Part shown: positions 32,560 through 60,539 of the stretch, piece by piece
Position numbering within the stretch: position 1 is the stretch's first letter
Layout of the letters: each line of letters begins with the position of its first letter
NCBI RefSeq assembly: GCF_050920415.1
Contig: NZ_CP169309.1
Direction: 5' to 3' (one strand)
Length of the DNA stretch: 64,000 nt
Source of the DNA: Escherichia coli
GTDB lineage: Bacteria > Pseudomonadota > Gammaproteobacteria > Enterobacterales > Enterobacteriaceae
The notes under the pieces: model-generated
Database searches by the model: none
Told to the model about the DNA's origin: nothing
Seen by the model: only the letters and a program-made list of their open reading frames with translations
Made by a program: the position numbers and the translations under genes

Positions 32560-35500
32560 TTACCACTGAATACCGGCACCGAGTGCGGCGGAGTATTCAC
32601 CCTGGCTATTGGTACTACCTTGTAATTTGTAGACCCAACGACCATTGGCGCTCACCATCGACACACCTAAAGCAACAGCCGATTCGCCGTTGTAAGTACC
32701 ACCACCAATAGAGGCCATGCTGGCTCCCGGCGTGTAAGCCTGCGGCAGACCGGTCATTGCCATTGCGGAAGCGATACCACCGCTCAGCTTGCTTTCGGTT
32801 TTGGACAGTTTGTTATCCATCTCAACCATGCGCTGATCGGTGTATTGCTTCGTTTCCTGCACACTTTGCTTCAACTGTGCATAGTTCACTGCGTCGTTGT
32901 TGTTCACGCCCGCAGAAACGTTGCTGATGCGAGTCGTACCGCCATTGCCGCCACCGAGAGTAATGTTGCTGTAGTCGATAGAGCCATCAGCTTTGGTGTC
33001 GTAGCGAACGCCACCTGCTTCGGAAGACTTCAGTTGCGAAACGTTAACCGCATCGGTGGCATTAACACCGGCAGCAACGTTGGTGATACGGCGCTGGTTG
33101 GTAGAAGAACCCACAGAGATTGTGTTTTCTTCGTTGGCCACGGAGCCTGTACCCAGAGCGACGCTGTTGTCAGCGGCAGCAATGGATCCAGAACCAATCG
33201 CCACACTGTCTTTACCCTGGGCGTTAGCATCTACGCCATCGGTGTTGGTCTTGAAGTACTTGGTGCTACCTGTGGTTACGATATCGCCAATACCGTTCTC
33301 GATATTGGTCACGCGAGTATCCAGATTCGTCACCTGATTGTTCAGGCTAGTAATGCTCTGGGTATTCTGGGAAACCTGCGCATCCGTTACTTTCAATTGA
33401 CCCACGTTGACCGCATCGGTATCCGCCGAACCAGCCGCGACGTTGGTGATCTGACGTTGACCGTCTTCGCTACCTACGGAGAATTCACCCACAGAGTTCT
33501 GCGGTGTATCCATGTTGTAGGCGGTGTAGCCAGTTTGTGCGCCACGGGTAGTTTGAGAACCATTACCCATTGCAATGCTGTTTGCATGGTTTGCACGCGC
33601 GTTGCTACCGATAGCAATACCGTTAATCGCATCTGCCAGAACTAAAGTGTTCAGGCCGATACCAATACCTGCATTACCATTAACGATGGTTTTTGCGCCC
33701 ATTGCCAGCGAGTCTTCACCGACTGCCAGTGAGTCTTCAGCCGTTGAGTTGGCGTGATAGTATTTGGTCGGCGTGGTGGCTACTGCACCAATCGCATTCT
33801 GCAACTGGCGAACCGTAACGGCATCATGGGCTTCAGAACCATCGGCAACATTGATGATTTGACGATATTTACCATCGTCACCGATCGACAATGCGCCAAG
33901 CAGTTCACCGTCAGTTGTGTCATAACCAATCACAACACCTTCTTCCGATACGCTGGTGTCACGAGAACCTTTAACTATTACACGGCTGGAAACGGAACTG
34001 CTACCCAGGGCGATACCCGTCTCAACTTCGCTGCGGCTGTCCTGACCAATGGCTACGCTGCTGGCTTTGGAAGCAACAGAGTTATAACCCACAGCGGTAG
34101 AGCCAATGCCTGCTGCGCTGGCATCGGTGAAGGTTAAACCGGTGTCATTGGTACGCACATAGTTAATACCTGCACCATTTTCTTCGATGTAGGTTTCACT
34201 GGTGTTACCGGCAAGCTGATTGATGACTTCGCTGTTCTGCTGGATCAGCATATTGGTGTTAAACAGCTGAGAACCGTTGATAGCATCGGTGCTACCTTCA
34301 CCAATGTTACCATCAGCAACGTTTGTGATAATGCTGGCCTTGCCGTCATGACTGGCGTTGTAAGCCCCTTCGCCGTTATTGGCGGTCGCATCCCACAGCA
34401 GCGCGTTCTCATCAAGCGCATCCAGAGCGTCACCGACATTGTTGTACTCGGCATTTGCAATGGTGTAAGTCGGCGCAGTGATAGCACCGTCAGCGTTAAC
34501 TTCTGCATCACCGCCCAGAGCATCAGCGATATATTTGTTAGTGGTATAGAGTTGTGAGCCGTTAATCGCGTCGCTGCTGGTGGCAGAGATTGCACCATTT
34601 GCGACGTTAGTAATCTTACTGGCAGTGTTATCTACCCCACGACCGGCGCTGAATGCACCAGCACCGTCATTGGCTGTTGCATCCCAGAGCAGGGCGTCAT
34701 CCAGCGTGGTATCGATCGCTTCCAGTGCGTCACCAACGTTGCTGTAACTGCCGCCAGCGATGGCATAAGTCGGTGCGGTGATACTGCCATCCGCATTCAC
34801 CACAGCGTTCCCGCCCAGAGCATCGGCAATGTAGTCACTAACGCCATAAAGCTGTGAACCGTTAATAGCGTCGCTACTGGTGGACGAGACTGCACCGTTT
34901 GCAATATCAGTGATTACACTGGGATCATTATTAATGCCGTGTTTGGCGCTGAATTTGCCTGCGGTTGTATCCCAGAGCAGAGCATCACCGAGAGAATCAC
35001 TAAATGAAGTGTTAATCGCAGCCAGAGCATCCCCGACGTTAGTATAGTCAGTGCCGCCAATACTATAGGTTGGCCCGGTTAATACACCTGTATCGCTAAT
35101 ATCAGCACCACCACCCAGATAGGACGTGAATGAATCAGCCAAACCGTAAAGTTGTGAGCCATTTATGGCGTCAGTGCTGTCAGAGGAGACTATGCCAGCT
35201 TGTACGTTGCTGATTTTGTTGGTGGCGTTAGTGCCGTGTGCAGCGGTGAATGCGCCTGCGGCATCGTCCCATTTCAGGGCGTCTTCACCGAGGTTAGTCA
35301 CCGTATCAGTCAGGTTAGTGATATTGGTGGTGTTAGTCGCCACGTTATCGTTAGTGGTTTTCAGCTGAGAACCGTTAACGGCGTCGGTGCTGGTGTCAGA
35401 GAGCTCGCCAGCGGTGACATTAGTGATTTTGCTGGTGACATCGGTGCCGTGTGCGGCGCTGAACGCGGTGCCATTCCACAGCAGGGCATCATCATTGAGA

Positions 35501-37536
35501 CCGTCTATGGCATTGGTCAGGTTAGTGATATTGCTGGTGTTGGTGGCGATGTTGGTGGTGTTGGTAGCGATATTGGTGGTGTTTGCCGCCACATCGTCCT
35601 TGGTCGCTTTCAGCTGAGAACCGTTAACGGCGTCGGTGCTGGTGTCAGAGAGCTCGCCAGCGGTGACGTTAGTGATTCTGTTGGTGGCGTTAGTACCGTG
35701 TGCAGCGGTGAATGCGCCTGTGGCGTCGTCCCATTTCAGGGCGTCTTCACCGAGGTTAGTCACCGTATCAGTCAGGTTAGTGATACTGGTGGTGTTGCCA
35801 GCCACTTCGCTCGTCAGGTTAGTGATGTTGGTGGTGTTAGCCGCCACATCGTCCTTGGTCGCTTTCAGCTGAGAACCGTTGACGGCGTCGGTGCTGGTGT
35901 CAGAGAGTTCGCCAGCGGTGACATTGGTGATTTTGCTGGTGACGTCGGTGCCGTGAGCGGCGCTGAACGCGGTGCCATTCCACAGCAGGGCATCATCATT
36001 GAGACTATCTACGGCATCGGTCAGGTTAGTGATATTGGTGGTGTTGCCAGCCACTTCGCTCGTCAGGTTAGTGATGTTGGTGGTGTTAGCCGCCACATCG
36101 TCCTTGGTCGCTTTCAGCTGAGAACCGTTGACGGCGTCGGTGCTGGTGGCTGAAAGGTCGCCAGCGGTAACGTTAGTGATTTTGCTGGTGGCATCTGTAC
36201 CATGTGCCGCACTATATCCCCTTTTAAGGTTGTCCCATTGTATCGTATTCGTGTTTAGATCCGCTAAGGCGTCGCCAACATTGCCATAAATACCATTTTT
36301 CAGTCTGTAATTCGGGGAAGTCACCACGCCCTGCGAATTGACGGTCGCTCCTCCACCAAGATTATCCGCTACTGACTTACTAATAGCATAAAGCTGTGAT
36401 CCATTGATGGCATCAGTACTGTCAGTGTCGATATCACCTTTTGCCATATTGACAATTTTTCGCTGAGCTGTTGTGTTACCCACGGAGACAGTATCCGCTT
36501 CAGTCGCGACAGAATCAGCACCCAGAGCAATTGAATTTTTACCTTGAGCAGTGGCCTGAGCACCAATTGCAATGCCATTTTCTAAACCGGCATAACTGCC
36601 TTGTCCAAGAGCAATGGCATTTGCCCCACCGGTAATACTCCCATTTCCCAGTGCGATTGCATTTACGCCGTCAGCTTTATTCCCCTGACCGATGGCAATG
36701 GCACCCGCAGCGATTGCCTGGCTTTGATTACCCAGAGCAATCGTATTATCGGTATTTGCAATACTCCCGTAGCCCAACGCGATACTGTTAAGCCCATTTG
36801 CCTCAGCTTTAGTACCCACTGCCGTTGCATTTTCAGCGGCTTCGGTCTCAGCGCCAACCGCAACCGCGTTTGCGGCGCTGGCAATGGACAGTCTACCTAA
36901 TGCAAGGCTGTCTTCACCACTAGCAGCACTCTCTCTACCTGCGGCAATGGAATTAGTTCCTGACGCCTTTGCCAGTCTCCCGAATGCAAGAGCATCCATA
37001 GCACTTGCTACTGTATCCTTGCCCAACGCTATGGTGCCTTCAGCTGTAGCTTGTGCAGAATTCCCCAGTGCAAGGGTATAATCGCTGGTCGCTTTAGCCG
37101 CACTGCCGATGGCGATTGAACGGCTACCCGTGGAAACCGTTGATTGCCCTAAGGCGACCGATCTTTCTCCTGACGAATTACTTGAGAAGCCAATTGCGGT
37201 ACTTCCCACCCCGGCATTAGCTCTTGCACCGACAGCAACACTCCCGCTACCCGTTGTGCCTGTACCCATTGTATCTGATGAGGCGACGGCCTCTTTACCA
37301 ATAGCAATCCAGTTATCACTCAGTGGCGTTTCGCCTGCAATTTCTTCTGCGCTTTTACCACCGTCAAGTGAAACCGAAGCATAGGCTCCAACTGATGAGA
37401 GTAACCCACCCGCAACCAGGGCAGAAATTAACAGCTTACTGCGCCCGCTCTTTTTGCCACGGCTCTTCGCCGTTTCGCTGGCAACGCTATAGCTGCCCGT
37501 CGCCGGATTCCAGATAACTTTAAATATTTTGTTCAT
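32560..37536 (-). CDS. upaG: Trimeric autotransporter adhesin (YadA-like; UpaG/EhaG-type), 1658 aa
   Basis: N-terminal extended signal peptide [18 protein letters not shown]...; long Gly/Ala/Ser/Thr/Asn-rich passenger with YadA-like head and neck repeats; C-terminal membrane anchor ...[31 protein letters not shown]. Confidence 0.85.
35150..36230 (-). repeat. In-frame tandem repeats (about 250 bp / 83 aa, roughly 4 copies) inside the adhesin passenger domain
   Basis: Protein repeat unit ...[61 protein letters not shown]... recurs; identical antisense ORFs in the track (35165, 35387, 35636) reflect the nucleotide repeats. Confidence 0.8.
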
Positions 37537-44616: not shown

Positions 44617-45195
44617 ATGGATCTGTTGATTGTTTTAACTTACGTGGCGCTGGCATGGGCGGTCTTTAAAATCTTCCGTATTCCGGTGAATCAGTGGACG
44701 CTGGCGACGGCGGCGCTGGGAGGCGTTTTTCTGGTAAGCGGTTTGATTTTGTTGATGAACTACAACCACCCTTACACTTTTACCGCACAGAAAGCGGTGA
44801 TTGCTATTCCCATCACGCCACAGGTGACGGGGATCGTGACTGAAGTCACTGACAAGAATAATCAGCTTATTCAGAAGGGCGAGGTGCTTTTTAAGCTCGA
44901 CCCGGTACGTTATCAGGCGCGAGTCGACAGACTTCAGGCTGACCTGATGACGGCGACGCATAATATAAAGACGCTGCGCGCGCAGCTCACTGAAGCGCAA
45001 GCCAATACCACCCAGGTTTCAGCGGAGCGTGACCGCTTGTTTAAAAATTATCAACGTTACCTGAAAGGCAGCCAGGCGGCGGTAAATCCGTTCTCAGAAC
45101 GTGATATCGACGATGCGCGGCAGAATTTTCTCGCGCAGGATGCGCTGGTGAAAGGTTCGGTGGCGGAACAGGCGCAAATCCAGAGCCAGCTCGAC
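44617..45195 (+). pseudogene. yibH: yibH 5' fragment (HlyD-family membrane fusion protein), 193 codons, interrupted by IS insertion
   Basis: [23 protein letters not shown]... reading frame runs into IS left end at 45196; the rest of the gene resumes at 47324. Confidence 0.85.
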
Positions 45196-45296
45196 TGTCA
45201 GCGCCAATGATATAAGACAGTAATTCACCATTTGGATTGTCCGCTCCACCCAACATGTTGTTTCCTTAAGGTTCCTACACCACAAAGGGAACACTC

Positions 45297-46343
45297 ATGC
45301 TGAGCAGAGAGGACTTTTACATGATAAAGCAAATGCGCCAGCAAGGTGCGTATATTGTTGATATTGCCACTCAGGTTGGTTGCTCTGAGCGGACTGTCAG
45401 ACGGTACCTGAAATACCCGGAACCTCCGGCCAGAAAAACACGCCACAAAATGGCCAAACTCAAGCCGTTCATGGACTATATCGACATGCGTCTGGCTGAG
45501 AATGTCTGGAACGGCGAGGTCATCCTGGCGGAAATCAAAGCGATGGGTTATACCGGTGGCCGTTCCATGTTGCGTTACTACATCCAGCCCAAACGTAAGA
45601 TGCGGCCATCGAAGAAAACGGTTCGCTTCGAAACTCAGCCCGGTTACCAGCTACAGCATGACTGGGGAGAAGTTGAGGCTGAGGTTGCCGGGCAACGATG
45701 CAGGGTTAACTTCGCGGTTAATACGCTGGGGTTCTCACGTCGCTTCCATGTCTTCGCGGCACCAAAGCAGGATGCTGAACATACCTATGAGTCACTGGTC
45801 CGCGCCTTTCGCTACTTCGGCGGCAGCGTGAAAACCGTGCTGGTCGATAACCAGAAAGCCGCAGTGCTGAAAAATAACAACGGGAAGGTGGTGTTCAACT
45901 CCGGGTTCCTGCTGCTGGCCGATCACTATGGCTTCCTGCCACGGGCCTGCCGTCCACGAAGGGCCAGAACCAAAGGTAAGGTGGAACGGATGGTGAAATA
46001 CCTCAAGGAAAACTTCTTCGTCCGGTACCGCCGGTTCGACAGCTTCGCCCATGTTAATCAGCTACTGGAGCAGTGGATGGCTGACGTTGCCGACAGGCGG
46101 GAACTTCGCCAGTTCAGGCAGACACCGGAACAGCGCTTCACGCAGGAACAGGTGCATCTGCAGGCGCTGCCAGGTACGGACTTCGATACCAGCTACTTCG
46201 ATATCCGTCATGTCTCCTGGGATGGCTATATCGAGGTTGGCGGGAACCGTTACAGCGTGCCGGAAAGCCTGTGTGGCCAGCCGGTATCAATACGGATCTC
46301 GCTGGATGATGAACTGCGATTTACAGTAATGAGCAACAGGTAG
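45297..46343 (+). pseudogene. istA: IS21-family transposase IstA, frameshifted near 3' end (348 aa as read; about 390 aa if the -1 shift around 46313-46343 is repaired, then ending at 46468)
   Basis: HTH N-terminus and integrase-core-like body; alternative frame open from 46313 to TGA at 46466-46468, which overlaps the istB ATG. Confidence 0.8.
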
Positions 46344-46455
46344 CATCGCACCGTCTCTGTTCGGCTGTATACGGCTGGCAGACCGTGCCGGAGCATCACG
46401 CCCCACTCTGGCAGCAGGTCAGTCAGGTGGAACACAGGCCGTTGAGTGCCTATGA

Positions 46456-47262
<807 letters not shown>

Positions 47263-47323
47263 TGACCAATAGCGGACATTAAAAATGGCGAAAAACGGCC
47301 AATAATCTTGGCGTTGACACGAC

Positions 47324-47881
47324 AGTATGGTTAACGGTGAGCAGTCGCAGATTGTCAGCTTAAGGGCGCAGCTTACCGAAGCGAAATATAACCTTGAGCA
47401 GACCGTCATTCGCGCGCCGAGCAATGGCTACGTTACTCAGGTACTGATCCGCCCAGGTACATACGCAGCTGCCTTGCCGCTACGTCCGGTGATGGTTTTC
47501 ATCCCCGAGCAAAAACGGCAAATTGTCGCCCAATTTCGGCAGAACTCGCTGTTACGTCTGAAACCCGGCGATGATGCGGAAGTAGTGTTTAACGCGCTAC
47601 CTGGGCAGGTGTTCCACGGCAAACTGACTAGTATTTTACCTGTCGTGCCAGGTGGTTCGTATCAGGCGCAGGGGGTACTGCAATCATTAACCGTCGTACC
47701 CGGCACGGACGGTGTGCTGGGAACCATCGAACTGGACCCTAACGCTGATATCGATGCTTTACCCGACGGCATCTACGCCCAGGTGGCAGTTTACTCCGAC
47801 CATTTCAGCCATGTTTCGGTGATGCGGAAGGTGCTGCTAAGAATGACCAGTTGGATGCATTATCTTTATTTGGATCATTGA
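47324..47881 (+). pseudogene. yibH: yibH 3' fragment (185 codons); joins in-frame with 44617-45195 to give 378 aa once IS and TSD are removed
   Basis: ...[32 protein letters not shown]... typical HlyD/EmrA-like; frame arithmetic confirms. Confidence 0.85.
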
Positions 47882-48185
47882 GGGGGGCGGGGGAGATTAT
47901 GGAACTTTGCTCCTTGTAAGGACTAATTATTTTTGCATATTACTTCATTGGCTGCGATGATTTTTCTTTAATATTCATTAGGTTGAGAAGTTCTTGATGA
48001 GTGTGCTCTCATTGGATTTTTTATCCGTCTTGTTCTGCCGCAGGATCAGACTATACATCGTCGAGATCGCAATGATTATGAATTGTTCCTCTGCGACGAT
48101 GCTAATCAAAAAAGTGCTGGAGTGCTTTTCCATCTATTGCGATGATGGTTTTATTATCTGAAGAATGACAGTCACACATCCAGCT

Positions 48186-48457
48186 AATAAAGAACTCGTG
48201 AAATTTTCCAGGACTGATACAGGACACAACTCTGGTAATGATATCGTGAATAGGAATACCATATTAAAAATCACCATATTGCTTCAACAAATCGAGATGA
48301 GTCTCACCAGAATCCTCTATATCTTCCCATCCTTCAGCTCCGGAAATGATGGCGAAAATAATCAGCACTAGGATATCTGATAATTTATACTCTACTTTCC
48401 AGACTTGTCTGTAATCGGGACAGTAGAAATATGCTCCATTAATTTTTTAAGTTCCAT
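48186..48457 (-). pseudogene. H-repeat (ISAs1-family) transposase N-terminal fragment, degraded copy 1 (frameshift and in-frame stop)
   Basis: Begins ATG-GAA-CTT-AAA-AAA (MELKKLM...) like copy 2 at 50276-50572 but carries a 1-nt deletion and a stop. Confidence 0.7.
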
Positions 48458-48915
48458 TTTTTCTCCTTGTTTATGTAAGGAGTGTCTGAATATATATAAG
48501 CTATGAAAACACTTATTAAATAATAAGGGATATCTTGATTATTGGACATTTAGTGCTAATTGTTTAGTGCAAAAAATCGGCGTTATATGGTCTTTACCTT
48601 TATTACCCTTGCTGTTTTCCTCCAGCCTATGAAAAGCCAGCTTCAGTAAATCGTACCGCCCGAACATTGTAAGATACAATTTACTGACAACTTAGTACAT
48701 TATTAATATCACATTTAAGCTTTTTTTTCAGATTATAAAGCCTGTCCACTTTATAATCTTTGCAATTATAAACGTATTCTTTTTTTGTTTTCATATCAAT
48801 GACACTAACCCCTCGCATGTTACTACCGTTGTCGTAATTGCTAAACACGGAGTACTTATATCCACTTTGAATAAAACTAACGCTAAAGTAATCCGTTTGA
48901 AATCTGGAGTAATGA

Positions 48916-49128
48916 TTATAAAAAATCCTGAATACATTGGTCCATCTGAAATGAATTGAAATTTATCCCATGCTGACTATTCATTTCATAAATCAACGTT
49001 TCACCAAAACTTGTTAATGACAAAGTTCCTTTGGATGTATTACATAAAAAATAATTATTTCCTGCGTTTAGAGTCCAGGGAATTCCAGATAAAAAAATAA
49101 AAATTAATGCTCTATCTATATTGCTCAT
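48916..49128 (-). CDS. Small hypothetical protein (70 aa) with N-terminal hydrophobic segment; candidate immunity protein for the orphan muramidase-like toxin domain
   Basis: ORF start overlaps the stop of the orphan toxin ORF by 17 bp; MSNIDRALIFIFLSGIPWTLNAG... Confidence 0.35.
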   Translation of the reverse strand: MSNIDRALIFIFLSGIPWTLNAGNNYFLCNTSKGTLSLTSFGETLIYEMNSQHGINFNSFQMDQCIQDFL

Positions 49129-50276
49129 AATTAGCCCTTATTCTGTCATCATATCCTCGCTGACTTTGCCCATTATAACATAGAGCAAAGTTAAGCCAAT
49201 CTTTATCTCTAATAGCACGCAATAATACAGGATTAGATTTTATGAAGTTAATGAATGCCGCCAGATGGTTTTTCTCTGACTCTGAAATCGATATTATAAA
49301 CTCTTCGGGCGAAGAGTACCCGGCAGCTTGGTAATTTGAAGCCAATATCTGAAATTTACCCCACGATGCCGATTTAAGCGCAGCTTGCTTATCTAAAACA
49401 TATGCACGAAGTAATTTTTGATATTGCTCCGATCGTGTTCCATAACCGCCAGAACGGCTGTTGGAAATATCAGGTTGAGAATCATACACACCATTCGTAT
49501 ATCGATGGAAATGATGTCTTTCAAAAAGAATTGAGGGGACGTAATCATCTTCTTGTTCAAATTTAAAATAGCTACCGGAACTACCAGTTTCAGTTTTTGC
49601 AACAGCTTTAATTGCAGCCACTTCGCATTGTAGTGTCCTTGCAGCATTTTCATAGTCTGCATCATCAATGGTATCTCCGTTATAAAATCGTAAAAATTCC
49701 AATGGAATAAGTTCATTATTTACAGGAGTTTTTGGGTAATTGCTATTATTAATAGCATTCAAAAACACAACCGGATGAAAATGCCACACAGCATCATCAC
49801 TATTAAACGGAGACACCCCGCTCATCCACTCCAGATCCAGCTGCCACTTTTCACAGTATGCCACTTCCTCGGGTCCAGATCTTTATAAAACCCTTCCCAG
49901 CGTCCCGTCGAGCGACCGCCGTACCACTCGCTGTGGTGTCTGACTGTCAGACGATTCACCACATTTCTCACCAGTGGTTCACGCACGGTCAGCGCCTGTC
50001 TGATCTCTTCCTCCGTCACTTTTCCATCACCGTCCTGATCCATACCCGCCATCAGCTCACGATAAAAGGGCGGTACCTGCTCATACAGCCACTCATCTCC
50101 CTGTTCTGCGGCACGGCTTATTGAGTCAAACGCTTCCGGCACCCATCCTTCGTACGGGCTGTACGTCATGTCACCGCTGCTGTTCTCCTCCAGCGGCTGA
50201 AAACCCAGCTTCAGTAAATCATACTGTCCGGCCTCTTCAACATCCTTCTGTGGCAGCCAGCCGGTTCCGGTGATAT
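49112..50276 (-). pseudogene. Displaced (orphan) effector 3' module: shared pre-toxin region with EF-hand loop plus a distinct C-terminal N-acetylmuramidase-like domain; 5'-truncated and carrying a 1-nt frameshift near 49866
   Basis: 49764-50276 is near-identical to 52116-52630 of the full-length effector; downstream domain has ...FERHHFHRYT... and ...SWGKFQILASNY... motifs; no start codon; two overlapping ORFs (49822-50391, 49112-49864). Confidence 0.75.
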
Positions 50277-50572
50277 TAAGCCGCCTCTGGTTTCCTTTTA
50301 ATAAAGCACTCGTGAAATTTTGCAGGACTGATACAGGATACAACTCTGGCAATGGTATCGTGAACAGGAATACCATTATCAAAATCACCATATTGCTTCA
50401 AAAAATCGAGATGTGTTTCCCCAAAATCCTCTATATCTTCCCAGCCTTCTGCACCCGAAATAACGGCACAAATAGTCAACAGTAGAATATCCGATAATTT
50501 ATGTTGCACTTTCCAGGCTTGTCTGTAATCGGGGATAATAGAAATATGTCCCATCAATTTTTTAAGTTCCAT
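50276..50572 (-). pseudogene. H-repeat (ISAs1-family) transposase N-terminal fragment, copy 2 (about 92 codons then truncated)
   Basis: [64 protein letters not shown]... matches the start of E. coli H-rpt proteins, then loses homology. Confidence 0.8.
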
Positions 50573-51289: not shown

Positions 51290-53779
51290 TTACTCCAGTT
51301 CAGTTATTCGTCTCTCTACAAATGTGGATATATTCCTTTTTTCTATTCCATATACTTTTCTATCACCCTCACGCCCTTCCTGAGGAAACGGATGCAGGTC
51401 AATTAATTCTTTCGCCCTTCTATAACCTTTTAATGCTTCTTCGTTACTCTTGATCGTCCCTCTTCGGGAGCTATCAGGATCATGCCATATCCCCCATCCC
51501 AAAGCATATACTTTATTATCATATACGTCACTATCATCAAACAAGAAATCGTCGTTCATTGCTTTCTGATTTAAATGCTCGGCAGCAAGTGAGGTAACCA
51601 ATTTATTAAATATCGACAACCGTTCATCATAATGATTATACCCTCCATTAATCACTGCTGTAATTTTATTAAAATCATCATTTTTAGCATCTTCATTTAT
51701 TCTTTTGAATATATTGAAATACCAAAACGCAGATAATACGCAATGTGGGGAGGATATAAGTTTATCTCTTGCGGAATCTGAAGATGTTACGTCCTCATTG
51801 ATATATTCCCCATAGGCGGTGTAATTACTTTCCCCTGTAACTTGTATTAAGCCTCGGCCATACCACGGACTATATGAAGCTGATTCACCATTAATTTCTT
51901 TGGTATATCTAAAATAACCGCTCTCGTGAATAATTTGAGCAAGAAAATGGGCTTTTTCTCTACAAGTGGTCATACCAAACCGAATAAACCCTGCATTTAT
52001 ATCGTAGAGGTACCTTTTGAGAAGACCTTCACTTACTGCAGGAGCAACTTTTTTTAATTCATCTAATGTTATATCTCTGTTGCAAGCACACACAGATTTG
52101 GAATTAATAGCGTCCAAAAACACAACCGGATGAAAATGCCACACAGCATCATCACTATTAAACGGAGATACCCCGCTCATCCACTCCAGATCCAGCTGCC
52201 ACTTCTCACAGTATGCCACTTCCTCTGTGTCCAGATCTTTATAAAATCCTTCCCACCGCCCTGTCGAGCGCCCTCCGTACCATTCGCTGTGGTGTTTAAC
52301 TATCAGATGATTCACCACATTTCTCACCAGTGGTTCACGCACGGTCAGCGCCTGTCTGATCTCTTCCTCCGTCACTTTTCCATCACCGTCCTGATCCATA
52401 CCCGCCATCAGCTCACGATAAAAGGGCGGTACCTGCTCATACAGCCACTCATCTCCCTGTTCTGCGGCACGGCTTATTGAGTCAAACGCTTCCGGCACCC
52501 ATCCTTCGTACGGGCTGTACGTCATGTCACCGCTGCTGTTCTCCTCCAGCGGTTGAAAACCCAGCTTCAGTAAATCATACTGTCCGGCCTCTTCAACATC
52601 CTTTTGTGGCAGCCAGCCGGTTCCGGTGATATTAAACCACCACTGCTGCGATTCATCCGTGATCGGTGTCGTGGCTTCCCGCGGAAGAACGCGCTGAGCA
52701 CCCAGTGTGGCTGCGGTTGCGGTAAATACCTCCTGTCCCGGAACGGCCTGCCGGGTGTATAAAATTATCCCTTTTGGTGCCAGAACAGTCCGTTTTTCTC
52801 CCTTAACGCCTGCCGGGTTGGATAAGAACTTTGGCATATTCGGGTCTGTACTCAGAACCTCCAGATGGACGAACCACTCGCGCTCAATCTCACCGCTTCC
52901 CTCGCCAGGATAATCCTCGCATCCCATAAATCCGACCGGTGTTCCGGCACTGACTTTCCACTCTTCCGTTTCGTCGACCGTCTGTACCGAGTCAAAAATG
53001 CCTTTTGCCTTCGCCTTCTGCATCCACTCAGGCATCAGCATCTGTATTTCGCCATCTGACTCCATCAGATCCGGATCCAGGGTCACCCAGTACTGCTCAT
53101 TCCCCGGTTTATTGCCTTCCAGCAGGCGAACCAGTCCGAATGTCGTCAGGACCGGCTGGCCGTTATTGGTCACGTAAAAACGTCCGGTCCGGGATGACAC
53201 AAACCGATCTCCCGCATTAAGTGTCCTGTTTCCGCTGATTTTCGGGGGTATCCAGTACGTGGCATGATCTCCGCTTTCCTGCCCCTCGGGAAGGCCGTTC
53301 TTTCCCGGGATGTATCGGTGCAGCAATATGCCACCATGCCCGGTTTTAACTTTATAGCAGGGGGAGCCGGGATAATCGTTCACCGGGGCCAGATGCATAT
53401 AGAGACAGTAAAATTCCAGCCAGCTTTCTTTTTTTTGCGGGTCTGGCTGGCACTGCGATTTCACCAGAACAAATGTGCTGCTGTAACGGAGTTGCTGCCC
53501 TTTGTAGGTGCCTTTCAGGTAATCATTATTTATCCGGTACGCCGCAATGGTGCCATCGGCCATAAACTGAAGAGGAACCGGTTCTCCGGTAGCGGCGGTA
53601 TCCGGTTTCAGGGCTGATAACGGATTAGACACGTCACTGATATGTATCCCGCCGTGCCACAGCCCGTTTCCACCCAGCAGCCAGGTTCCGTGCGCTTCTT
53701 TGTCAATAAGCCGCATTATCTCATCCAGCGAGCGAAACTCTTTGCCTTCTTTATCCCTGATGGGATGGCTGATTTTCAT
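51290..53779 (-). CDS. VgrG-linked candidate T6SS effector, 829 aa: N-terminal domain of unknown function, central EF-hand-like Ca-binding loop, C-terminal GH19/lysozyme-like peptidoglycan hydrolase domain
   Basis: 9 bp downstream of vgrG stop; DQDGDGKVTEEE loop; C-terminal ...AHFLAQIIHESGYFRYTKE...YGRGLIQVTGESNYTAYG...LSAFWYFN... resembling the GH19 / COG3179 signature. Confidence 0.7.
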   Translation of the reverse strand: MKISHPIRDKEGKEFRSLDEIMRLIDKEAHGTWLLGGNGLWHGGIHISDVSNPLSALKPDTAATGEPVPLQFMADGTIAAYRINNDYLKGTYKGQQLRYSSTFVLVKSQCQPDPQKKESWLEFYCLYMHLAPVNDYPGSPCYKVKTGHGGILLHRYIPGKNGLPEGQESGDHATYWIPPKISGNRTLNAGDRFVSSRTGRFYVTNNGQPVLTTFGLVRLLEGNKPGNEQYWVTLDPDLMESDGEIQMLMPEWMQKAKAKGIFDSVQTVDETEEWKVSAGTPVGFMGCEDYPGEGSGEIEREWFVHLEVLSTDPNMPKFLSNPAGVKGEKRTVLAPKGIILYTRQAVPGQEVFTATAATLGAQRVLPREATTPITDESQQWWFNITGTGWLPQKDVEEAGQYDLLKLGFQPLEENSSGDMTYSPYEGWVPEAFDSISRAAEQGDEWLYEQVPPFYRELMAGMDQDGDGKVTEEEIRQALTVREPLVRNVVNHLIVKHHSEWYGGRSTGRWEGFYKDLDTEEVAYCEKWQLDLEWMSGVSPFNSDDAVWHFHPVVFLDAINSKSVCACNRDITLDELKKVAPAVSEGLLKRYLYDINAGFIRFGMTTCREKAHFLAQIIHESGYFRYTKEINGESASYSPWYGRGLIQVTGESNYTAYGEYINEDVTSSDSARDKLISSPHCVLSAFWYFNIFKRINEDAKNDDFNKITAVINGGYNHYDERLSIFNKLVTSLAAEHLNQKAMNDDFLFDDSDVYDNKVYALGWGIWHDPDSSRRGTIKSNEEALKGYRRAKELIDLHPFPQEGREGDRKVYGIEKRNISTFVERRITELE

Positions 53780-53788
53780 GTTCAGTCC

Positions 53789-55990
53789 TTATCGTGAGAA
53801 TCTTCCCGGCCGTTGTGGCGGTACCTTATCCTGCTGGGGAGGATCAAAGGCTTCCTGTACATTTTTCCGTGGTGGCTCCGCCCCTTCAGTTCCAGGTCCG
53901 CCATTGTCATAATCTGCCAGCGCTTTCAAAACCGCCGGTCGTAGTGTCGGCACCGGCGTTCCCGGACTACCGCCGCTATTGAGATTGATTTTCGGCCCGA
54001 CGATGTCCACGCCCCCTGAATGGATGACCACAAACGAACCACCCACCTTCAGGGTGATTTTACCGCCACTCTCCAGTACGATTTCATCCCGGACCTTCAT
54101 TCCCAGCGCACCGGTAATCTTCCTCGCCAGGTCGCCCTTCACCTCCAGACTGTGCGTTCCCTCCACCAGACTGATATGGTTCCCCGTCGTCTTATGCTCC
54201 TGCTTCCCTTCCACCGTCACTTTACGGTCGTTTCTGACATACAGGCCGTCATCGTGACTCACGCTCACCGTCCGGTCATTCGTCACCTTCAGCGTCTGGT
54301 CATTACGTACCGTTATGCGCCGGTCGTTCGCCACCGTGATACTCTGGTCGTGGCCCCCTTCTTTTCTGGTGCCGACCTCAACCGTCTGCCCCTTCACCAC
54401 CCTTATCTTCTGGTCGTTACCGATGGTCTCCGTATGGTCATGCTTCACGTCCGTCGTCCGGTCGTTAAGCACCTCCGTGTCCATGTTCTTCTGCGCGTGG
54501 ATATACACCTGCTCACTGTCCGTCGCATCCTCGAAACGCAGTTCATTAAAGCCGCTTCCTTTATAGGTCTTCGAGCGGATGGTCATCTGCGTCCGCGTGC
54601 CCGGTAAATCCCCCGGTGAACGGTTATCTTCATGGTAGGTCCGCCCCGTCACAATGGGCTGGTCCGGGTCGCCGTTCAGAAAGTCCACTATCACTTCCTG
54701 ACCCACACGCGGTATCGCCAGATTGCCGAACCCCGGTCCCGCCCATGCCTGCGACACCCGTATCCAGCATGAACTCTCCTCCGTCATCCCGTGATAACGG
54801 TCCCAGTGAAACTTCACCCGTACCCGGCCATGCTCGTCGCAGAATATCTCCTCGCCCTTCGGCCCGGTCACGATGGCACTCTGCGGGCCGTCCACCTTCG
54901 GCTTCGGCAGGGGCTGTGAGCGCCAGGTCCGGTCTGCCGGGATGACCGTGATATGGTTACTCAGTGTCGTTCCCCTCCCCTGGCTCCCGTGCAGCGCCTG
55001 CGGCTGGCTCCCCGTCAGCGTGCTGCTCACCACCTGCCACTCACGGTTCGGGTTCGCTCCCTGTACCGGATGCCCCGTCAGGGTGAACCGCCGTCCCGGC
55101 CACAGCGCCGGGGAGTTACTGATACCTGTGGCGGTTTCAGCACTGTTACGCAGCCCTTCCAGCCGGTAGCGGGTAAAGTCCTGACCATGCTGCTCGTCCT
55201 TGTAGCGCCCCGGCCAGTCCAGGATTTTGTACTGCTTCAGTTGCTCGTTGAGGTTTTCAGCATCCTCAATGTAAATACCCGGCCAGTCCGGCACCTTAAA
55301 CGTGTGGTCTTTTGAACGCACCTGCGAGGGCCGCACCTGCGCCTGGTAGCGGAACAGGCTGATGCACGCCGTCGTCACCTCACGGGTGTTCGGGTTAAAC
55401 GGTATCTCCCCGTACACCGGCAGGCCCGCCACATCATCGCACAGCGTGAGCGTCTGCTCCGGGCTGTCGTCAGCGTATCTGTCATAAAAGAAGATGCCTT
55501 CCTCCGCCCACAGCCGGGTCAGAAACGCCAGGTCGCTTTCACCGTACTGGACGCAGAACTCCCGTGCCGGGTGGCTCTCATAAAAGCGCGGCGTCCACTG
55601 CGTCACTCCGTCCTCGTTTAACAGCGTGGCGGAGATGGCCTGAATGTCCTGCTGCTGGAAGATTCGGTAGTTCTGCCGCAGCCCGCTGCGCCACAGGGGC
55701 GGGCGTATCTGAAGGTGGTACTGCATCTGCCAGCCGTTGTGCTCCTTCATGCCTAACCCCGACACCACACCGCTCACATAACGCAGCGCCGTGCCACCCT
55801 GCCAGATGGTCAGCACGGCCCCCTTCTCCAGCAGCTTCTCCGCCGTCTGGCGGAACGAGTCGCTGGCAACGTCCACATCCAGGACGAACGGCGATGAGTA
55901 TGCCTGCGTGAGGCGGAAATCCACCACCGCGAACGTCTCCGGCACCAGTCCGTCCACCGTCAGCGTAAAACGCAGCCCTTTTAATGACAT
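53789..55990 (-). CDS. vgrG: T6SS spike protein VgrG (copy B), 733 aa
   Basis: MSLKGLRFTLTVDGL...; gp27/gp5-like regions (...GQEVIVDFLNGDPDQPIVTGRTYH...) and C-terminal beta-helix repeats (VKHDHTETIG...ITVANDRRITVRNDQTLKVTNDRTVSV...). Confidence 0.9.
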   Translation of the reverse strand: MSLKGLRFTLTVDGLVPETFAVVDFRLTQAYSSPFVLDVDVASDSFRQTAEKLLEKGAVLTIWQGGTALRYVSGVVSGLGMKEHNGWQMQYHLQIRPPLWRSGLRQNYRIFQQQDIQAISATLLNEDGVTQWTPRFYESHPAREFCVQYGESDLAFLTRLWAEEGIFFYDRYADDSPEQTLTLCDDVAGLPVYGEIPFNPNTREVTTACISLFRYQAQVRPSQVRSKDHTFKVPDWPGIYIEDAENLNEQLKQYKILDWPGRYKDEQHGQDFTRYRLEGLRNSAETATGISNSPALWPGRRFTLTGHPVQGANPNREWQVVSSTLTGSQPQALHGSQGRGTTLSNHITVIPADRTWRSQPLPKPKVDGPQSAIVTGPKGEEIFCDEHGRVRVKFHWDRYHGMTEESSCWIRVSQAWAGPGFGNLAIPRVGQEVIVDFLNGDPDQPIVTGRTYHEDNRSPGDLPGTRTQMTIRSKTYKGSGFNELRFEDATDSEQVYIHAQKNMDTEVLNDRTTDVKHDHTETIGNDQKIRVVKGQTVEVGTRKEGGHDQSITVANDRRITVRNDQTLKVTNDRTVSVSHDDGLYVRNDRKVTVEGKQEHKTTGNHISLVEGTHSLEVKGDLARKITGALGMKVRDEIVLESGGKITLKVGGSFVVIHSGGVDIVGPKINLNSGGSPGTPVPTLRPAVLKALADYDNGGPGTEGAEPPRKNVQEAFDPPQQDKVPPQRPGRFSR
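54085..54930. repeat. About 0.85-kb block near-identical to 58422-59267 (internal vgrG segment shared by both paralogs, offset 4337 bp)
   Basis: Antisense ORFs 54020-54607 and 54616-54945 are letter-identical to parts of 58204-58944 and 58953-59534; VgrG proteins identical over about 270 residues. Confidence 0.85.
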
Positions 55991-56145: not shown

Positions 56146-57075
56146 TTAATAATTCCTCAACGAATAAGGAGGAGATGCCCTGTCCCCATCAATAGTAACC
56201 ACGACCTGATTTGATCTTATTTTGAATATATTATCATTACCGCCATGATAGCCAAATCGTGCTAAAAAATCCTGAAATAGACCAGGTCCTCTATAAGGTC
56301 CACAGATTCTCCAAACCCGCCACTCCTCTATGCCATACGTTATTTTATCTATAGGATTAGTACACTCTCTTTCTGCCCGCCAGTTCATAATAGAAAGAAA
56401 ATACTCATATATATATTGTTCTGCAAACCACTCTTGATTAACTATTGTAAATTCTACCGTCCCTATATTATAACGATGAATGCCCGGTAAAAAGGCATAA
56501 TAATCGTTCAATGTGACATCAAAGGATAGCTCTTTCCCTGGTAATATCTCGCGCCAAACAGATTTACTTTTCCATTCACCAAAGCTACATTTTGTTTTTT
56601 TTAAAAAATCCAACTGAATGTTATCCATTATCGGTATAAACACACCACTACACAAGGAAGAGTAAGGCCCGCCGTTAACGTCAAGAGGAAGAGTTAGTCG
56701 ATGAACAAAATAAGATCCCTGGCTTTTATTCGATAAAACCACTGCAGCTGCTACAATATTTTCTTTCTGATGCACGGAAAGATGAAGATATATTTTATTT
56801 TTATCCTGATTATACTGACTCTCATTTTTACTGATAGTATAATATTGAAAAACAGCATAGGCTGAAAGATCATCATAATAATCATAATAATTAAGCCTTG
56901 TCGGTTCTACACGAGGATAGACACCAAGTTTTTCCATTACTCCATTCCAATGTAACTTCCCATATCTGTAATGAACCGCATAATCGCCAGAGATATCATA
57001 AGCAAATATTGGATGCACCCAAGAAAAAAAAGCAATAAAAACAATCCATCTAGCAAGCATATACTCCCCCGTCAA
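56146..57075 (-). CDS. Candidate immunity protein (309 aa, N-terminal signal peptide) for the upstream HExxH effector
   Basis: MLARWIVFIAFFSWVHPIFAYD... signal peptide; 9 bp downstream of the metallopeptidase-like gene; Trp/Tyr-rich. Confidence 0.5.
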   Translation of the reverse strand: MTGEYMLARWIVFIAFFSWVHPIFAYDISGDYAVHYRYGKLHWNGVMEKLGVYPRVEPTRLNYYDYYDDLSAYAVFQYYTISKNESQYNQDKNKIYLHLSVHQKENIVAAAVVLSNKSQGSYFVHRLTLPLDVNGGPYSSLCSGVFIPIMDNIQLDFLKKTKCSFGEWKSKSVWREILPGKELSFDVTLNDYYAFLPGIHRYNIGTVEFTIVNQEWFAEQYIYEYFLSIMNWRAERECTNPIDKITYGIEEWRVWRICGPYRGPGLFQDFLARFGYHGGNDNIFKIRSNQVVVTIDGDRASPPYSLRNY

Positions 57076-57084
57076 ATAAAAGCA

Positions 57085-57930
57085 TCAATATGGTACAGGA
57101 ATCTCGAAATAACGTTCGATATTATATGCATTCTGAAACAGTTCTGATTTTTTATCATTTTTTAATTTAGTGGCATGAGCAATATATTCGTCACCTGTAC
57201 TATACTCTATATCTACCGGCATATCTTCCGTCCACATGCCTCCAAACTTAAGTGAATCCCCGTACCTTATAAAGTGAGATAGTTCATGGCAGAGTGTCGA
57301 TGCCTTAGAGTTTTCCCCAGTGAATGGCCTATCTATAAATCTTTGTCCTATAGTTATACTTACCAAACTTTTAAAGCTTCCAGATTTTACACCCAAAATC
57401 TGATCGTAAGTTACATTGGCAGCATAAGCGTCATTATCTGTACAATTCACAAAGTTACCAATTTTGGGCCTGATTACGTCTTTGTCAACATATTCATTAC
57501 CCCCTTTGTCATTAAGAACAAGATTACAATTGGCATCACGTTTGAGGAAATGGTCATGAACGGTAACGTCTACACAATCACCTTCCACAGATAATTCCCC
57601 ACATATCTCATACAGGCGAGTAACGCCATTTCTCATATAATCCCTTGCCTTTATATTCTCTGTAAACAGAGTATTACGCCCCCCGAAAGGGAACTTTAAT
57701 TTAATATAAGTATTTCCATCAATGCCAAATATATTTATAAATTCCTGATTTTGTTCCGCCCCCCATTTATCACCAAGATCTTCTACTCTTTTTTTCAATA
57801 CAGCCATCTGCGCCTTCAGAGCCTCTCTCATCATTATTTTAAAATCATTAGTAATTTTCCCCTCCTTTAAAACTACACACTGTTCACCACTCTGGCTTTT
57901 TCCGCTCGTACTACCCTTTTCATCTCCCAT
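57085..57930 (-). CDS. VgrG-linked candidate effector, 281 aa, with HExxH zinc-metallopeptidase motif (TLCHELSHF)
   Basis: Follows vgrG copy A by 81 bp; HELSH motif in C-terminal third; no signal peptide. Confidence 0.6.
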   Translation of the reverse strand: MGDEKGSTSGKSQSGEQCVVLKEGKITNDFKIMMREALKAQMAVLKKRVEDLGDKWGAEQNQEFINIFGIDGNTYIKLKFPFGGRNTLFTENIKARDYMRNGVTRLYEICGELSVEGDCVDVTVHDHFLKRDANCNLVLNDKGGNEYVDKDVIRPKIGNFVNCTDNDAYAANVTYDQILGVKSGSFKSLVSITIGQRFIDRPFTGENSKASTLCHELSHFIRYGDSLKFGGMWTEDMPVDIEYSTGDEYIAHATKLKNDKKSELFQNAYNIERYFEIPVPY

Positions 57931-58011
57931 ATAAATCCTCCTTGGTATATATTTTCACTACAAACCCTGTTCCATTTATGCAAAAACACGCCAATTACAG
58001 GCGGTCACTCT

Positions 58012-60324
58012 CTATTCATTAATCCCTCCCCATATCATATCGATATTCAAATGCAACAATCTGACGTCTATTGTCTGCTCGCTGTCAGTGGTGAATATTT
58101 CCGTATACCCATCCTTATCCGTTTCTCCGCGGGTCTGCGTGCCGTCCTCAAAGAAGGCAATGTAGCGTGTCTCTGAATACGGTATCCCGTCATCGTCTGT
58201 AAAATGGAACTGGAGAGTATATTTTTCAGGGTTCTCATCATCATTCTCATCCTCCAGCGCCTCCAGTACAACCGGTTGCAGCGTCGATACTGGCGTCCCC
58301 GGACCTCCCCCACCATTCAGGTTTATCTTCGGCCCCACTATATCCACGCCGCCAGAGTGTATCACCACGAACGAACCGCCCGCTTTCAGGCTTATCTGGC
58401 TGCTGCTCTCCAGCACGATATCCCCGTCCACCTTTATCCCCAGCGCGCCACTCACCTTCTCCGCCAGGTCACCCTTCACCTCCAGGCTGTGTTTCCCCTC
58501 CACCAGGCTGATATGGTTTCCCGTCGTCTTATGCTCCTGCTTCCCTTCCACCGTCACTTTACGGTCGTTTCTGACATACAGGCCGTCATCGTGACTCACG
58601 CTCACCGTCCGGTCATTCGTCACCTTCAGCGTCTGGTCATTACGTACCGTTATGCGCCGGTCGTTCGCCACCGTGATACTCTGGTCGTGACCCCCTTCTT
58701 TTCTGGTGCCGACCTCAACCGTCTGCCCCTTCACCACCCTTATCTTCTGGTCGTTACCGATGGTCTCCGTATGGTCATGCTTCACGTCCGTCGTCCGGTC
58801 GTTAAGCACCTCCGTGTCCATGTTCTTCTGCGCGTGGATATACACCTGCTCACTGTCCGTCGCATCCTCGAAACGCAGTTCATTAAAGCCGCTTCCTTTA
58901 TAGGTCTTCGAGCGGATGGTCATCTGCGTCCGCGTGCCCGGTAAATCCCCCGGTGAACGGTTATCTTCATGGTAGGTCCGCCCCGTCACAATGGGCTGGT
59001 CCGGGTCGCCGTTCAGAAAGTCCACTATCACTTCCTGACCCACACGCGGTATCGCCAGATTGCCGAACCCCGGTCCCGCCCATGCCTGCGACACCCGTAT
59101 CCAGCATGAACTCTCCTCCGTCATCCCGTGATAACGGTCCCAGTGAAACTTCACCCGTACCCGGCCATGCTCGTCGCAGAATATCTCCTCACCCTTCGGC
59201 CCGGTCACGATGGCACTCTGCGGGCCGTCCACCTTCGGCTTCGGCAGCGGCGCGTGACGCCACGTCCTGTCTGCCGGTATCACCTCAAACTGATTGCTCA
59301 GTGTCGTCCCTTCACCGTGACTCCCGTGCAGCGCCTGCGGCTGTTCTCCCCGCAGTGTGCTTCCCACAACCTGCCATTCCCGGTTCAGCGTCGCTGACGG
59401 ATGGCCCGTCAGCCGGAACCGCGTTCCCGGCCACAGCCGCGCCGTGTTACACACCCCGCTCGCCGTCTCCGCCCCGTTCCGCCACCCTTCCGTCTGGTAA
59501 CGCGCAAAATCCTGGCCATGCTGCTCATCCTTGAAACGCCCCGGATAATCAAATATCTCGTACTGCGTTCCCTGTCCGTTCAGGCTCTCCCCGTCATGGC
59601 TGTAGTACCCCGGCCACCCCGGCGTTTTGAACGTATAATCCTGCGTCTCCACCGACGCCACGCTTATCTGCGCACGGTAACGGAAGTCGCGGATGTACTC
59701 TGTCGTGCCTCCGGTCGTGGTATTCGGGTTAAACGCCAGCGCCCCCATTCCCGTCAGCCCCGCCACGTCATCACACACCGCCAGCTTCTGTTCCGGCCCG
59801 TCCTGACTGCAGCGTTCATAAAAGAAGATACCTTCCTCCGCCCACAGCCGGGTCAGGAATGTCAGGTCGCTCTCCCCGTACTGCACGCAGAACTCCCGCG
59901 CCGGGTGCGCCTCATAGAACAGCGGCATCCACGCCGTCACCCCGTTCTCTTCAAGAAGCTGCGCTGATATCGTCTGAATGTCCTGCTGCTGGAAGATACG
60001 GAAGTTCTGCCGTAACCCTGCCCGCCACAGCGGCGGGCTGATGCTCAGGGAATAACGCATCTGCCAGTCGTTGTTCTCACCGAGCTGCACCTCTGTCACG
60101 ATACCGCTGACGTAACGCTGTGCAGTGTCGCCCTGCCAGACCGTCAGCACCGCGCTTTTCTCCAGAAAATCTTCTGCCGTCAGGTCAGACAGTCCGCTGG
60201 CGATATCCACATCCAGGATGAACGGTGTGCAGTGGTGCTGGTACAGACGGAAGCTCACCACCGCCGTCGCCATCTCCACAATACCGTCCACCGACAGCGT
60301 GAAACGTAATCCTTCTGCTGCCAT
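58012..60324 (-). CDS. vgrG: T6SS spike protein VgrG (copy A) with about 100-aa C-terminal extension, 770 aa from MAAEGLRFTL (the ORF in the track starts 11 codons upstream)
   Basis: Same domain order as copy B; extra C-terminal tail ...EKYTLQFHFTDDDGIPYSETRYIAFFEDGTQTRGETDKDGYTEIFTTDSEQTIDVRLL... Confidence 0.9.
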   Translation of the reverse strand: MAAEGLRFTLSVDGIVEMATAVVSFRLYQHHCTPFILDVDIASGLSDLTAEDFLEKSAVLTVWQGDTAQRYVSGIVTEVQLGENNDWQMRYSLSISPPLWRAGLRQNFRIFQQQDIQTISAQLLEENGVTAWMPLFYEAHPAREFCVQYGESDLTFLTRLWAEEGIFFYERCSQDGPEQKLAVCDDVAGLTGMGALAFNPNTTTGGTTEYIRDFRYRAQISVASVETQDYTFKTPGWPGYYSHDGESLNGQGTQYEIFDYPGRFKDEQHGQDFARYQTEGWRNGAETASGVCNTARLWPGTRFRLTGHPSATLNREWQVVGSTLRGEQPQALHGSHGEGTTLSNQFEVIPADRTWRHAPLPKPKVDGPQSAIVTGPKGEEIFCDEHGRVRVKFHWDRYHGMTEESSCWIRVSQAWAGPGFGNLAIPRVGQEVIVDFLNGDPDQPIVTGRTYHEDNRSPGDLPGTRTQMTIRSKTYKGSGFNELRFEDATDSEQVYIHAQKNMDTEVLNDRTTDVKHDHTETIGNDQKIRVVKGQTVEVGTRKEGGHDQSITVANDRRITVRNDQTLKVTNDRTVSVSHDDGLYVRNDRKVTVEGKQEHKTTGNHISLVEGKHSLEVKGDLAEKVSGALGIKVDGDIVLESSSQISLKAGGSFVVIHSGGVDIVGPKINLNGGGGPGTPVSTLQPVVLEALEDENDDENPEKYTLQFHFTDDDGIPYSETRYIAFFEDGTQTRGETDKDGYTEIFTTDSEQTIDVRLLHLNIDMIWGGINE

Positions 60325-60539
60325 ATAAACCCCATAGCTACCGCACTCATAGTGCAAACCATACGGGCTTATAAGAAAGGCTTAAGTGAGATATCTGCCA
60401 GATAGCAACTATTAGGAAAATATTTATATCACCATGATAAATATGTGATTTATTGGGAGATAACAAACCATCAACATTTTCTGCCCTTTTTCCCATCACC
60501 AGGCCATACTGATATTTTTCCTCGCACAAAGGACTCGGC

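Follow-up and report, generated by a model that had tools for sequence, protein, structure and literature searches.

A probable WHIX/TseP-family type VI secretion effector with a GH19-type, endolysin-like domain in an Escherichia coli chromosomal island

The stretch of Escherichia coli DNA analysed here, hereafter the window, spans 64,000 nucleotides (nt) of contig NZ_CP169309.1 (RefSeq assembly GCF_050920415.1) and carries on its minus strand a gene for an 829-residue protein, placed between vgrG and an open reading frame (ORF) for a 136-residue protein. The genes are tightly packed, with 9 nt between the vgrG stop and the ATG that opens the 829-residue frame and 5 nt between the end of that frame and the small ORF. 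A preliminary description of this DNA, made from its letters alone, had delimited the 829-residue frame, called it VgrG-adjacent, and quoted several peptides from it. All of this is borne out, the strand being our addition: the 733-residue neighbour matches the TssI/VgrG model TIGR03361, and every quoted peptide is present in the translation (DQDGDGKVTEEE at residues 462–473, AHFLAQIIHESGYF at 610–623, YGRGLIQVTGESNYTAYG at 640–657, and LSAFWYFN at 682–689). The frame is far beyond what chance would yield; its N-terminal domain alone (residues 1–560) has 683 homologues among 1.84 billion cluster representatives (phmmer, E ≤ 1e-3), 128 of them at E ≤ 1e-30. RefSeq names the protein variously "hypothetical protein", "chitinase", or "glycoside hydrolase family 19 protein" (family 19 is abbreviated GH19 below). 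In our assessment it is very probably a type VI secretion system (T6SS) cargo effector, belonging to subclass I of the WHIX effectors and to the TseP family. The effector is real and ordinary; its class is already known, and the exact protein is already present in a published catalogue.

The class was described between 2021 and 2025, in studies of TseP (Liang et al. 2021; Wang et al., eLife 2025, PMC11893102) and of the WHIX domain (Fridman et al., PLoS Biol 2025, PMC12135965). The protein in the window is 100% identical to WP_000703217.1, which is included in the supplementary tree and C-terminal sequence files of the WHIX paper; by this directly observed identity it falls under the inclusion rule of that paper, namely, an RPS-BLAST match to the WHIX profile with E ≤ 1e-6 and 70% coverage. 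Its layout is that of subclass I, with WHxxxH, the defining motif of WHIX domains (PMC12135965), at residues 41–46, hence an N-terminal extension of no more than 99 residues, and a GH19-type domain at about 575–740. The gene order, likewise a direct observation, places a spike gene immediately upstream and a signal-peptide ORF immediately downstream, as is typical of the class. According to the WHIX paper, the domain is sufficient for T6SS secretion (as found for Awe1) and is mostly fused to peptidoglycan-targeting C-terminal domains, "chitinase-like" being the largest C-terminal group of the class with 2,242 proteins; WHIX effector genes are followed by a signal-peptide immunity gene, and a T6SS is present in more than 98% of the genomes that encode them (PMC12135965). 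Compared with subclass I, the E. coli protein shows no difference in kind: the N-terminal WHIX domain, the predicted peptidoglycan-targeting C-terminus, the upstream VgrG, and the downstream candidate immunity gene are all shared, the only peculiarity being an extra 89-residue C-terminal extension with few relatives. The view that such a VgrG-adjacent protein falls outside the standard effector classes described so far is refuted by its WHIX subclass I/TseP architecture and by the catalogued WP_000703217.1, and the pairing of an EF-hand with a GH19-like domain had already been noted for TseP as an EF-hand plus lysozyme combination.

TseP of Aeromonas dhakensis SSU, a protein of 845 residues, consists of an N-domain (1–603), a predicted EF-hand, and a lysozyme C-domain (604–845), with VgrG2 as the carrier and TsiP as the immunity protein (PMC11893102). 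In our alignments it was represented by its Aeromonas molluscorum orthologue P0224 (844 residues), which matches the crystal sequence of TseP-C (8xcl) at 6.4e-79. Residues 1–193 of the E. coli effector align to P0224 with 35% identity (E 5e-27), a segment that includes WHGGIHIS and LYMHL, and residues 276–727 align at 6e-31, encompassing VHLEV, the EF-hand position, LIVKH-SEWY, LEWM, WHF-P, and the GH19 motifs. This alignment is colinear, and homology to the TseP family therefore extends over the full length of the protein. The two effectors share the succession of N-domain, EF-hand, and GH19-type lysozyme domain at comparable sizes (829 versus 845 residues), a VgrG carrier gene upstream, and an immunity gene downstream, the last being a candidate in our case; in both, the guanine-plus-cytosine (GC) content of the region for the N-domain exceeds that of the C-domain, by 16 points here and by about 10 in TseP (PMC11893102). 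They differ in that the effector is only about 25–35% identical to the Aeromonas orthologue, that its GH19 domain is shorter, closer to the endolysin 9ms7 than to 8xcl, and devoid of an insert of about 50 residues between the catalytic Glu and GRGLIQ, and that no known family is detectably related to its putative immunity protein. Awe1 of Aeromonas jandaei, a "double-blade" effector of subclass II, resembles the present system in having a WHIX domain encoded beside a VgrG with a similar tail (...VSFSGR for Awe1, ...PGRFSR here), but it has an additional toxin domain on the N-terminal side of WHIX and is accompanied by two immunity genes, whereas the E. coli effector starts with WHIX and is followed by one candidate immunity gene. 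The features of the locus are listed in Table 1.

Table 1 Features of the effector locus, in window coordinates
Feature	Position (nt)	Strand	Remarks
Effector coding sequence	51290..53779	(-)	829 residues + stop; probable WHIX subclass I / TseP family; = WP_000703217.1
WHIX domain, residues 1–560	52100..53779	(-)	Loading module common to homologues with other toxins; GC 53%
WHxxxH motif, W41 H42 G G I H46	53642..53659	(-)	H42, G43, G44, H46 invariant, 72 homologues
H305-L-E307	52859..52867	(-)	Candidate metal/groove motif at the presumed M23 HxH position
EF-hand loop DQDGDGKVTEEE, residues 462–473	52361..52396	(-)	Flanking predicted helices 452–460, 471–478
Junction motif WHFHPVVFL, residues 547–555	52115..52141	(-)	Homology to other-toxin relatives stops at most ~10 residues later; GC drop
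GH19-type lysozyme/endolysin-like domain, residues ~575–740	51560..52057	(-)	PDB, Foldseek, PHROG
Putative catalytic pair E619, E628	51923-51925; 51896-51898	(-)	Alignment to endolysins
89-residue extension, residues 741–829	51293..51559	(-)	Predicted helical; kept in only 7 retrieved homologues
Putative cognate immunity protein, 136 residues	50874..51284	(-)	Signal peptide MKVNLLVLLFCLVPCCLLA; GC 32.6%
Carrier VgrG, 733 residues	53789..55990	(-)	TIGR03361 7.5e-177
VgrG C-terminal tail ...QDKVPPQRPGRFSR	53792-53833	(-)	Likely WHIX docking peptide
Orphan frameshifted WHIX C-terminal module	49112..50289	(-)	WHIX part + N-acetylmuramidase PF11860
ISAs1-family (H-repeat) transposase remnant	50300..50572	(-)	Separates the active module from the orphan

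The relatives of the C-terminal domain point to its likely activity. In the PDB, phmmer retrieved 9ms7 (1.7e-13), 4ok7, which is the SPN1S endolysin (5.6e-10), 9eoi (2.6e-9), and TseP-C 8xcl (5.8e-8), and the endolysin family phrog_181 of PHROG was matched at 1.6e-33. Foldseek returned 9ms7 with a probability of 1.0 (E 7.3e-6, template modelling score TM 0.73); the same probability was obtained for 9eoi, 4ok7, 8xcl, and the GH19 chitinases 7f88 and 3wh1, and the GH19 chitinase 2dbt was also among the fold matches. The closest relatives of the domain are peptidoglycan hydrolases, not chitinases, and the initial reading of the C-terminus as GH19/lysozyme-like holds. E619, which lies in an HES motif, and E628 align with the two glutamates of 9ms7 and with those of 4ok7 (positions 64 and 73 of the chain) and form a putative catalytic pair; in TseP, the substitution E663A abolishes lysozyme activity (PMC11893102). 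With the GH19-type phage endolysins (SPN1S 4OK7, PWe2 9MS7, and 9EOI) the domain shares the fold, the Glu-x8-Glu pair, GRGLIQ(I/V)TG, and NGG; unlike them, it is a toxin module attached to a T6SS loading domain and would act from outside on a rival cell. The extension that follows the domain contains the conserved motifs WGxWHDPxSS and PFPxEG...YGIE and matched nothing in the PDB, Pfam, or PHROG.

The EF-hand described earlier as a textbook loop with the same letters in an orphan copy proved sound on both counts: Pfam EF-hand_1 matches residues 455–479 at 4.8e-4, the loop fits PROSITE PS00018 with the match starting at residue 462, and the orphan fragment downstream (ORF 49822-50391) repeats it without a single change. 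The flanking helices are predicted with a confidence (predicted local distance difference test, pLDDT) of only 59–73, and the PS00018 pattern reveals no second canonical loop in the effector. Conservation among homologues, on which the proposal had been made to depend, is borne out: 51 of 60 close homologues retain the pattern at the corresponding position, as do about 45 in a more distant set of 72 that extends to about 25% identity and in which several clades have lost it. The authors of the TseP study referred to the EF-hand as "previously unreported in T6SS effectors" (PMC11893102).

The N-terminal 350 residues, to which no motif had been assigned in the preliminary description, contain the WHxxxH motif and have a predicted M23/LytM-like fold. 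In an alignment of 72 diverse sequences, the invariant positions include H42, G43, G44, H46, H305, and E307; W41 is conserved in at least 90% of the sequences, and H129 is nearly invariant among close relatives. The structure model of the whole WHIX region predicts an M23/LytM-like core, SH3b-like beta domains, and a helical region with the EF-hand. However, compared with canonical M23 motifs, HxxxD is replaced by HxxxH (H42xxxH46) and HxH by HxE (H305-L-E307). Pfam PF01551 (M23) did not match the effector even at E ≤ 10, hhalign of the WHIX profile against the M23 domains of sister effectors gave a nonsignificant E of 0.069, and neither Foldseek nor PHROG yielded any match for the N-domain. 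Thus, as modelled, WHIX is M23-like in fold, and it is not a canonical M23 member.

WHIX has been predicted to form a cap over the C-terminal end of VgrG, and Awe1 requires the last 14 residues of VgrG4 (PMC12135965). We compared the C-termini of proteins whose genes immediately precede ten diverse WHIX genes (loci L003–L006, L008–L010, L013, and L014, together with the VgrG tail in the window). These carriers mostly end in FS[R/E]: ...GRFSR in the window, ...NRFSR in Cronobacter, ...AIFSR in a PAAR protein, ...FLFSE, ...YLFSE, ...FVFSE, and ...FDFSE, next to which stand ...GRNSR, ...GSISG, and ...VSFSGR of the published VgrG4; for the looser form [F/N]S[R/E], the count is 9 of 10 carriers. 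The other VgrG in the window, encoded beside an M35-type effector gene, ends in ...GGINE and has no FS[R/E]. Mention of this ending was not found in the parts of the WHIX paper that were consulted (PMC12135965). The FS[R/E] endings fit loading by tail capture and, by sequence, suggest that the WHIX cavity may recognise a short motif at the carrier's C-terminus.

The 136-residue ORF, which had been proposed as the protector, indeed looks like a periplasmic immunity protein. Its signal peptide is directly apparent, with a mean Kyte-Doolittle hydropathy of 2.6 over residues 4–19, compared with -1.7 for the effector, which has no signal peptide. Pfam, NCBIfam, and PADLOC contained no match to this ORF. 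A clear homologue follows the orthologous effector gene in Cronobacter; where the effector has a different C-terminal domain, the downstream gene encodes a different small protein with a signal peptide, for example LprI or TsiV3.

Among 120 close homologues, similarity to the E. coli effector either runs through the GH19 domain or stops at about residues 558–565, shortly after WHFHPVVFL, where the alternative C-termini include N-acetylmuramidase (PF11860), GH108, pesticin-like muramidase, CHAP, and M23 plus GH24 domains. The GC content is 53.0% for codons 1–560, 36.8% for codons 561–829, and 32.6% for the immunity ORF; at third codon positions it falls from 58% to 29% at about codon 560, coincident with the end of homology. 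This GC break and the end of homology mark a recombination junction for the exchange of toxin cassettes. An orphan module downstream illustrates the same polymorphism: its WHIX part (49748-50289) is 95.9% identical to codons 379–559 of the main gene but for a single gap that shifts the frame, and its toxin domain (PF11860, 6.5e-46) shares 99% identity with the C-terminus of P0005, an intact WHIX effector of 749 residues encoded elsewhere. A second ISAs1/H-repeat remnant (47961-48457) lies on the far side of the orphan, a further 53-nt scrap of WHIX is located at 48610-48662, and a 70-residue signal-peptide-like ORF (48916-49128) overlapping the muramidase stop may be a truncated immunity gene. 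This arrangement is reminiscent of the Rhs and CdiA polymorphic toxins, in which the junctions are marked by PxxxxDPxGL or VENN motifs: here, too, a conserved delivery part is joined at a sharp junction (WHFHPVVFL) to a variable, low-GC toxin–immunity cassette, and the displaced orphan module with its ISAs1/H-repeat remnants resembles orphan toxin–immunity arrays. The island, which lies between yibF/selA and mtlA and contains two vgrG-effector modules in tandem with debris of insertion sequences (IS) of the IS21 and ISAs1 families, also occupies the chromosomal position of rhsA in strain K-12. The resemblance does not extend to sequence, for which no relation exists, and WHIX toxins are periplasmic and nearly all directed against the cell wall.

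By analogy with Awe1 and TseP, on which we draw for loading, secretion, enzymatic activity, and immunity, the following mechanism can be proposed. The WHIX domain of about 560 residues would dock on the C-terminal tail of the upstream VgrG (...PGRFSR), and the effector would be shot, together with the spike, into an adjacent Gram-negative cell. Once in the periplasm of the prey, the GH19-type domain would hydrolyse the glycan strands of peptidoglycan in the manner of a lysozyme or endolysin, with E619 as the putative acid and E628 as the putative base, while the periplasmic protein encoded directly downstream would protect the producer and its kin. The toxin and immunity genes (37% and 33% GC) would form a swappable module joined to the 53%-GC WHIX region just after WHFHPVVFL, and the frameshifted muramidase module may be a displaced or reserve cassette.

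Several observations weigh against this picture. There are no T6SS core genes within the window, mutations of the EF-hand in TseP had no detectable effect (PMC11893102), and the full-length AlphaFold model has a pLDDT of 78, that is, of lower confidence. Furthermore, the Pfam match to GH19 (PF00182) covers only residues 634–677 with a nonsignificant i-Evalue of 0.084, although precomputed PF00182 matches exist for several close homologues; the GH19 call is therefore based on homology to PDB and PHROG entries and on the fold. Of the checks once suggested for this domain, the Pfam search thus came out negative, whereas the AlphaFold model compared with Foldseek returned the GH19 fold.

The names "chitinase" and "GH19 family protein" given by NCBI, as well as the presence of 7f88, 3wh1, and 2dbt among the fold matches, would fit a genuine chitinase serving chitin use, but the best matches are endolysins and TseP-C, a proven lysozyme. 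Moreover, a protein without a signal peptide, fused to a T6SS loading domain and encoded after vgrG, is followed here by an immunity-like gene with a signal peptide, and in its sister proteins the corresponding position is taken by other peptidoglycan hydrolases; this makes a chitinase highly improbable. Even less credible is a remnant of a prophage endolysin left beside vgrG by chance. The match of the C-domain to phage endolysin families, the low GC content of the cassette, and the IS remnants close by could be understood in that way, yet no phage genes surround the locus, which is the yibF–mtlA island, the N-domain has no counterpart in PHROG, and the order vgrG-effector-immunity is also present in Cronobacter, Photorhabdus, Aeromonas, and metagenomic contigs. 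Both readings were rejected on the strength of the context and the fused loading domain.

Two other alternatives concern what the effector does rather than what it is. TseP-N has been reported to be a Zn-dependent peptidoglycan amidase, with H19, H23, H109, H339, H359, and E539 as the published Zn-binding residues (PMC11893102), and the WHIX domain of the E. coli protein might, in addition to its loading role, be such an enzyme itself, so that the effector would cut both peptide and glycan. The invariance of H42, H46, H305, and E307 across the 72 homologues speaks for this possibility. On the other side, WHIX alone is non-toxic in the E. coli periplasm (PMC12135965), mutations in the C-domain alone relieve the periplasmic toxicity of TseP (PMC11893102), and both the altered M23 motifs and the Pfam, profile–profile, and Foldseek results given above are at odds with a canonical M23 enzyme. 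Nor could the published TseP residues be mapped onto the effector: the numbers (those listed above and E654 and E663) correspond to no retrieved Aeromonas protein, and none of the 396 retrieved proteins has His at both 19 and 23 or the N-terminal peptide of 8xcl. An amidase activity of WHIX is accordingly conceivable, and we lean against it. It is also possible, but rather unlikely, that the gene is intact and idle, the host strain lacking a working T6SS and the module being silent cargo of the island. In favour of such a state, the full locus is rare, being found in only 3 of 5,426 complete E. coli genomes, the island is full of IS21 and ISAs1 insertions and frameshifted fragments, and the window, as noted, is devoid of T6SS core genes; however, none of the three ORFs (vgrG, effector, and immunity) is disrupted and they lie close together, the overwhelming majority of WHIX-encoding genomes possess a T6SS, as cited above, and the closest genome has 8 places matching a vgrG-containing query. 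That genome belongs to E. coli strain MFDS1022581, which encodes an identical effector protein and whose chromosome is 99.6% identical to the region. An effector delivered by a T6SS thus remains the reading that we prefer.

The surroundings of the effector module contain further genes. Directly upstream lies a second vgrG-effector module (56146-60357, minus strand), in which a 781-residue VgrG (TIGR03361, 1.9e-177) bears the different C-terminal extension with the ...GGINE ending. Its 281-residue effector is of low GC (37%), carries an HELSH zinc motif, and is named "M35 family metalloendopeptidase" in a related genome; a low-GC ORF of 309 residues with a hydrophobic N-terminus may be the immunity protein or partner of the M35-type protein. 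Neither this pair nor the WHIX effector and its candidate immunity protein are covered by a family in NCBIfam or PADLOC. On the plus strand, a yibH-like gene of the HlyD family (44617-47881) is interrupted by the IS21-family element ISEc62, with istA at 45297-46343 and a frameshifted istB at about 46465-47262 according to the annotation of a near-identical genome. Farther away, a 1,658-residue ORF (32560-37536, minus strand) matches models of trimeric autotransporter adhesins (Ata-like, 2e-101; YadA/EmaA-type C-terminal anchor), none of the matches reaching the curated cut-off; this ORF is probably the E. coli adhesin of the EhaG/UpaG type, which is encoded near mtlA.

For the biology of T6SS, these results bring nothing new in kind, the class, the loading domain, the polymorphism, and the EF-hand all having been published. 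The minor additions are the FS[R/E] tail of the carriers, the predicted M23-like WHIX fold with altered metal motifs, the junction after WHFHPVVFL with an orphan at the rhsA position, and the extension at residues 741–829. A bolder and, in our estimate, unlikely possibility is that the WHIX groove (H42, H46, H305, and E307) is both the site of a Zn-amidase and the cavity that caps the VgrG tail, in which case FS[R/E]-COOH of the carrier would be a pseudo-substrate plug that loads the effector and silences the N-domain enzyme until release in the prey, the 89-residue extension being a possible new accessory module. If true, such a double role of the groove would reconcile the two 2025 papers, one of which presents the domain as an adaptor (PLoS Biol) and the other as an enzyme (eLife). 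As for annotation, the RefSeq labels "chitinase", "GH19 family protein", and "hypothetical protein" at this locus very probably mask an antibacterial T6SS effector, along with its putative immunity gene and what may be a reserve cassette.

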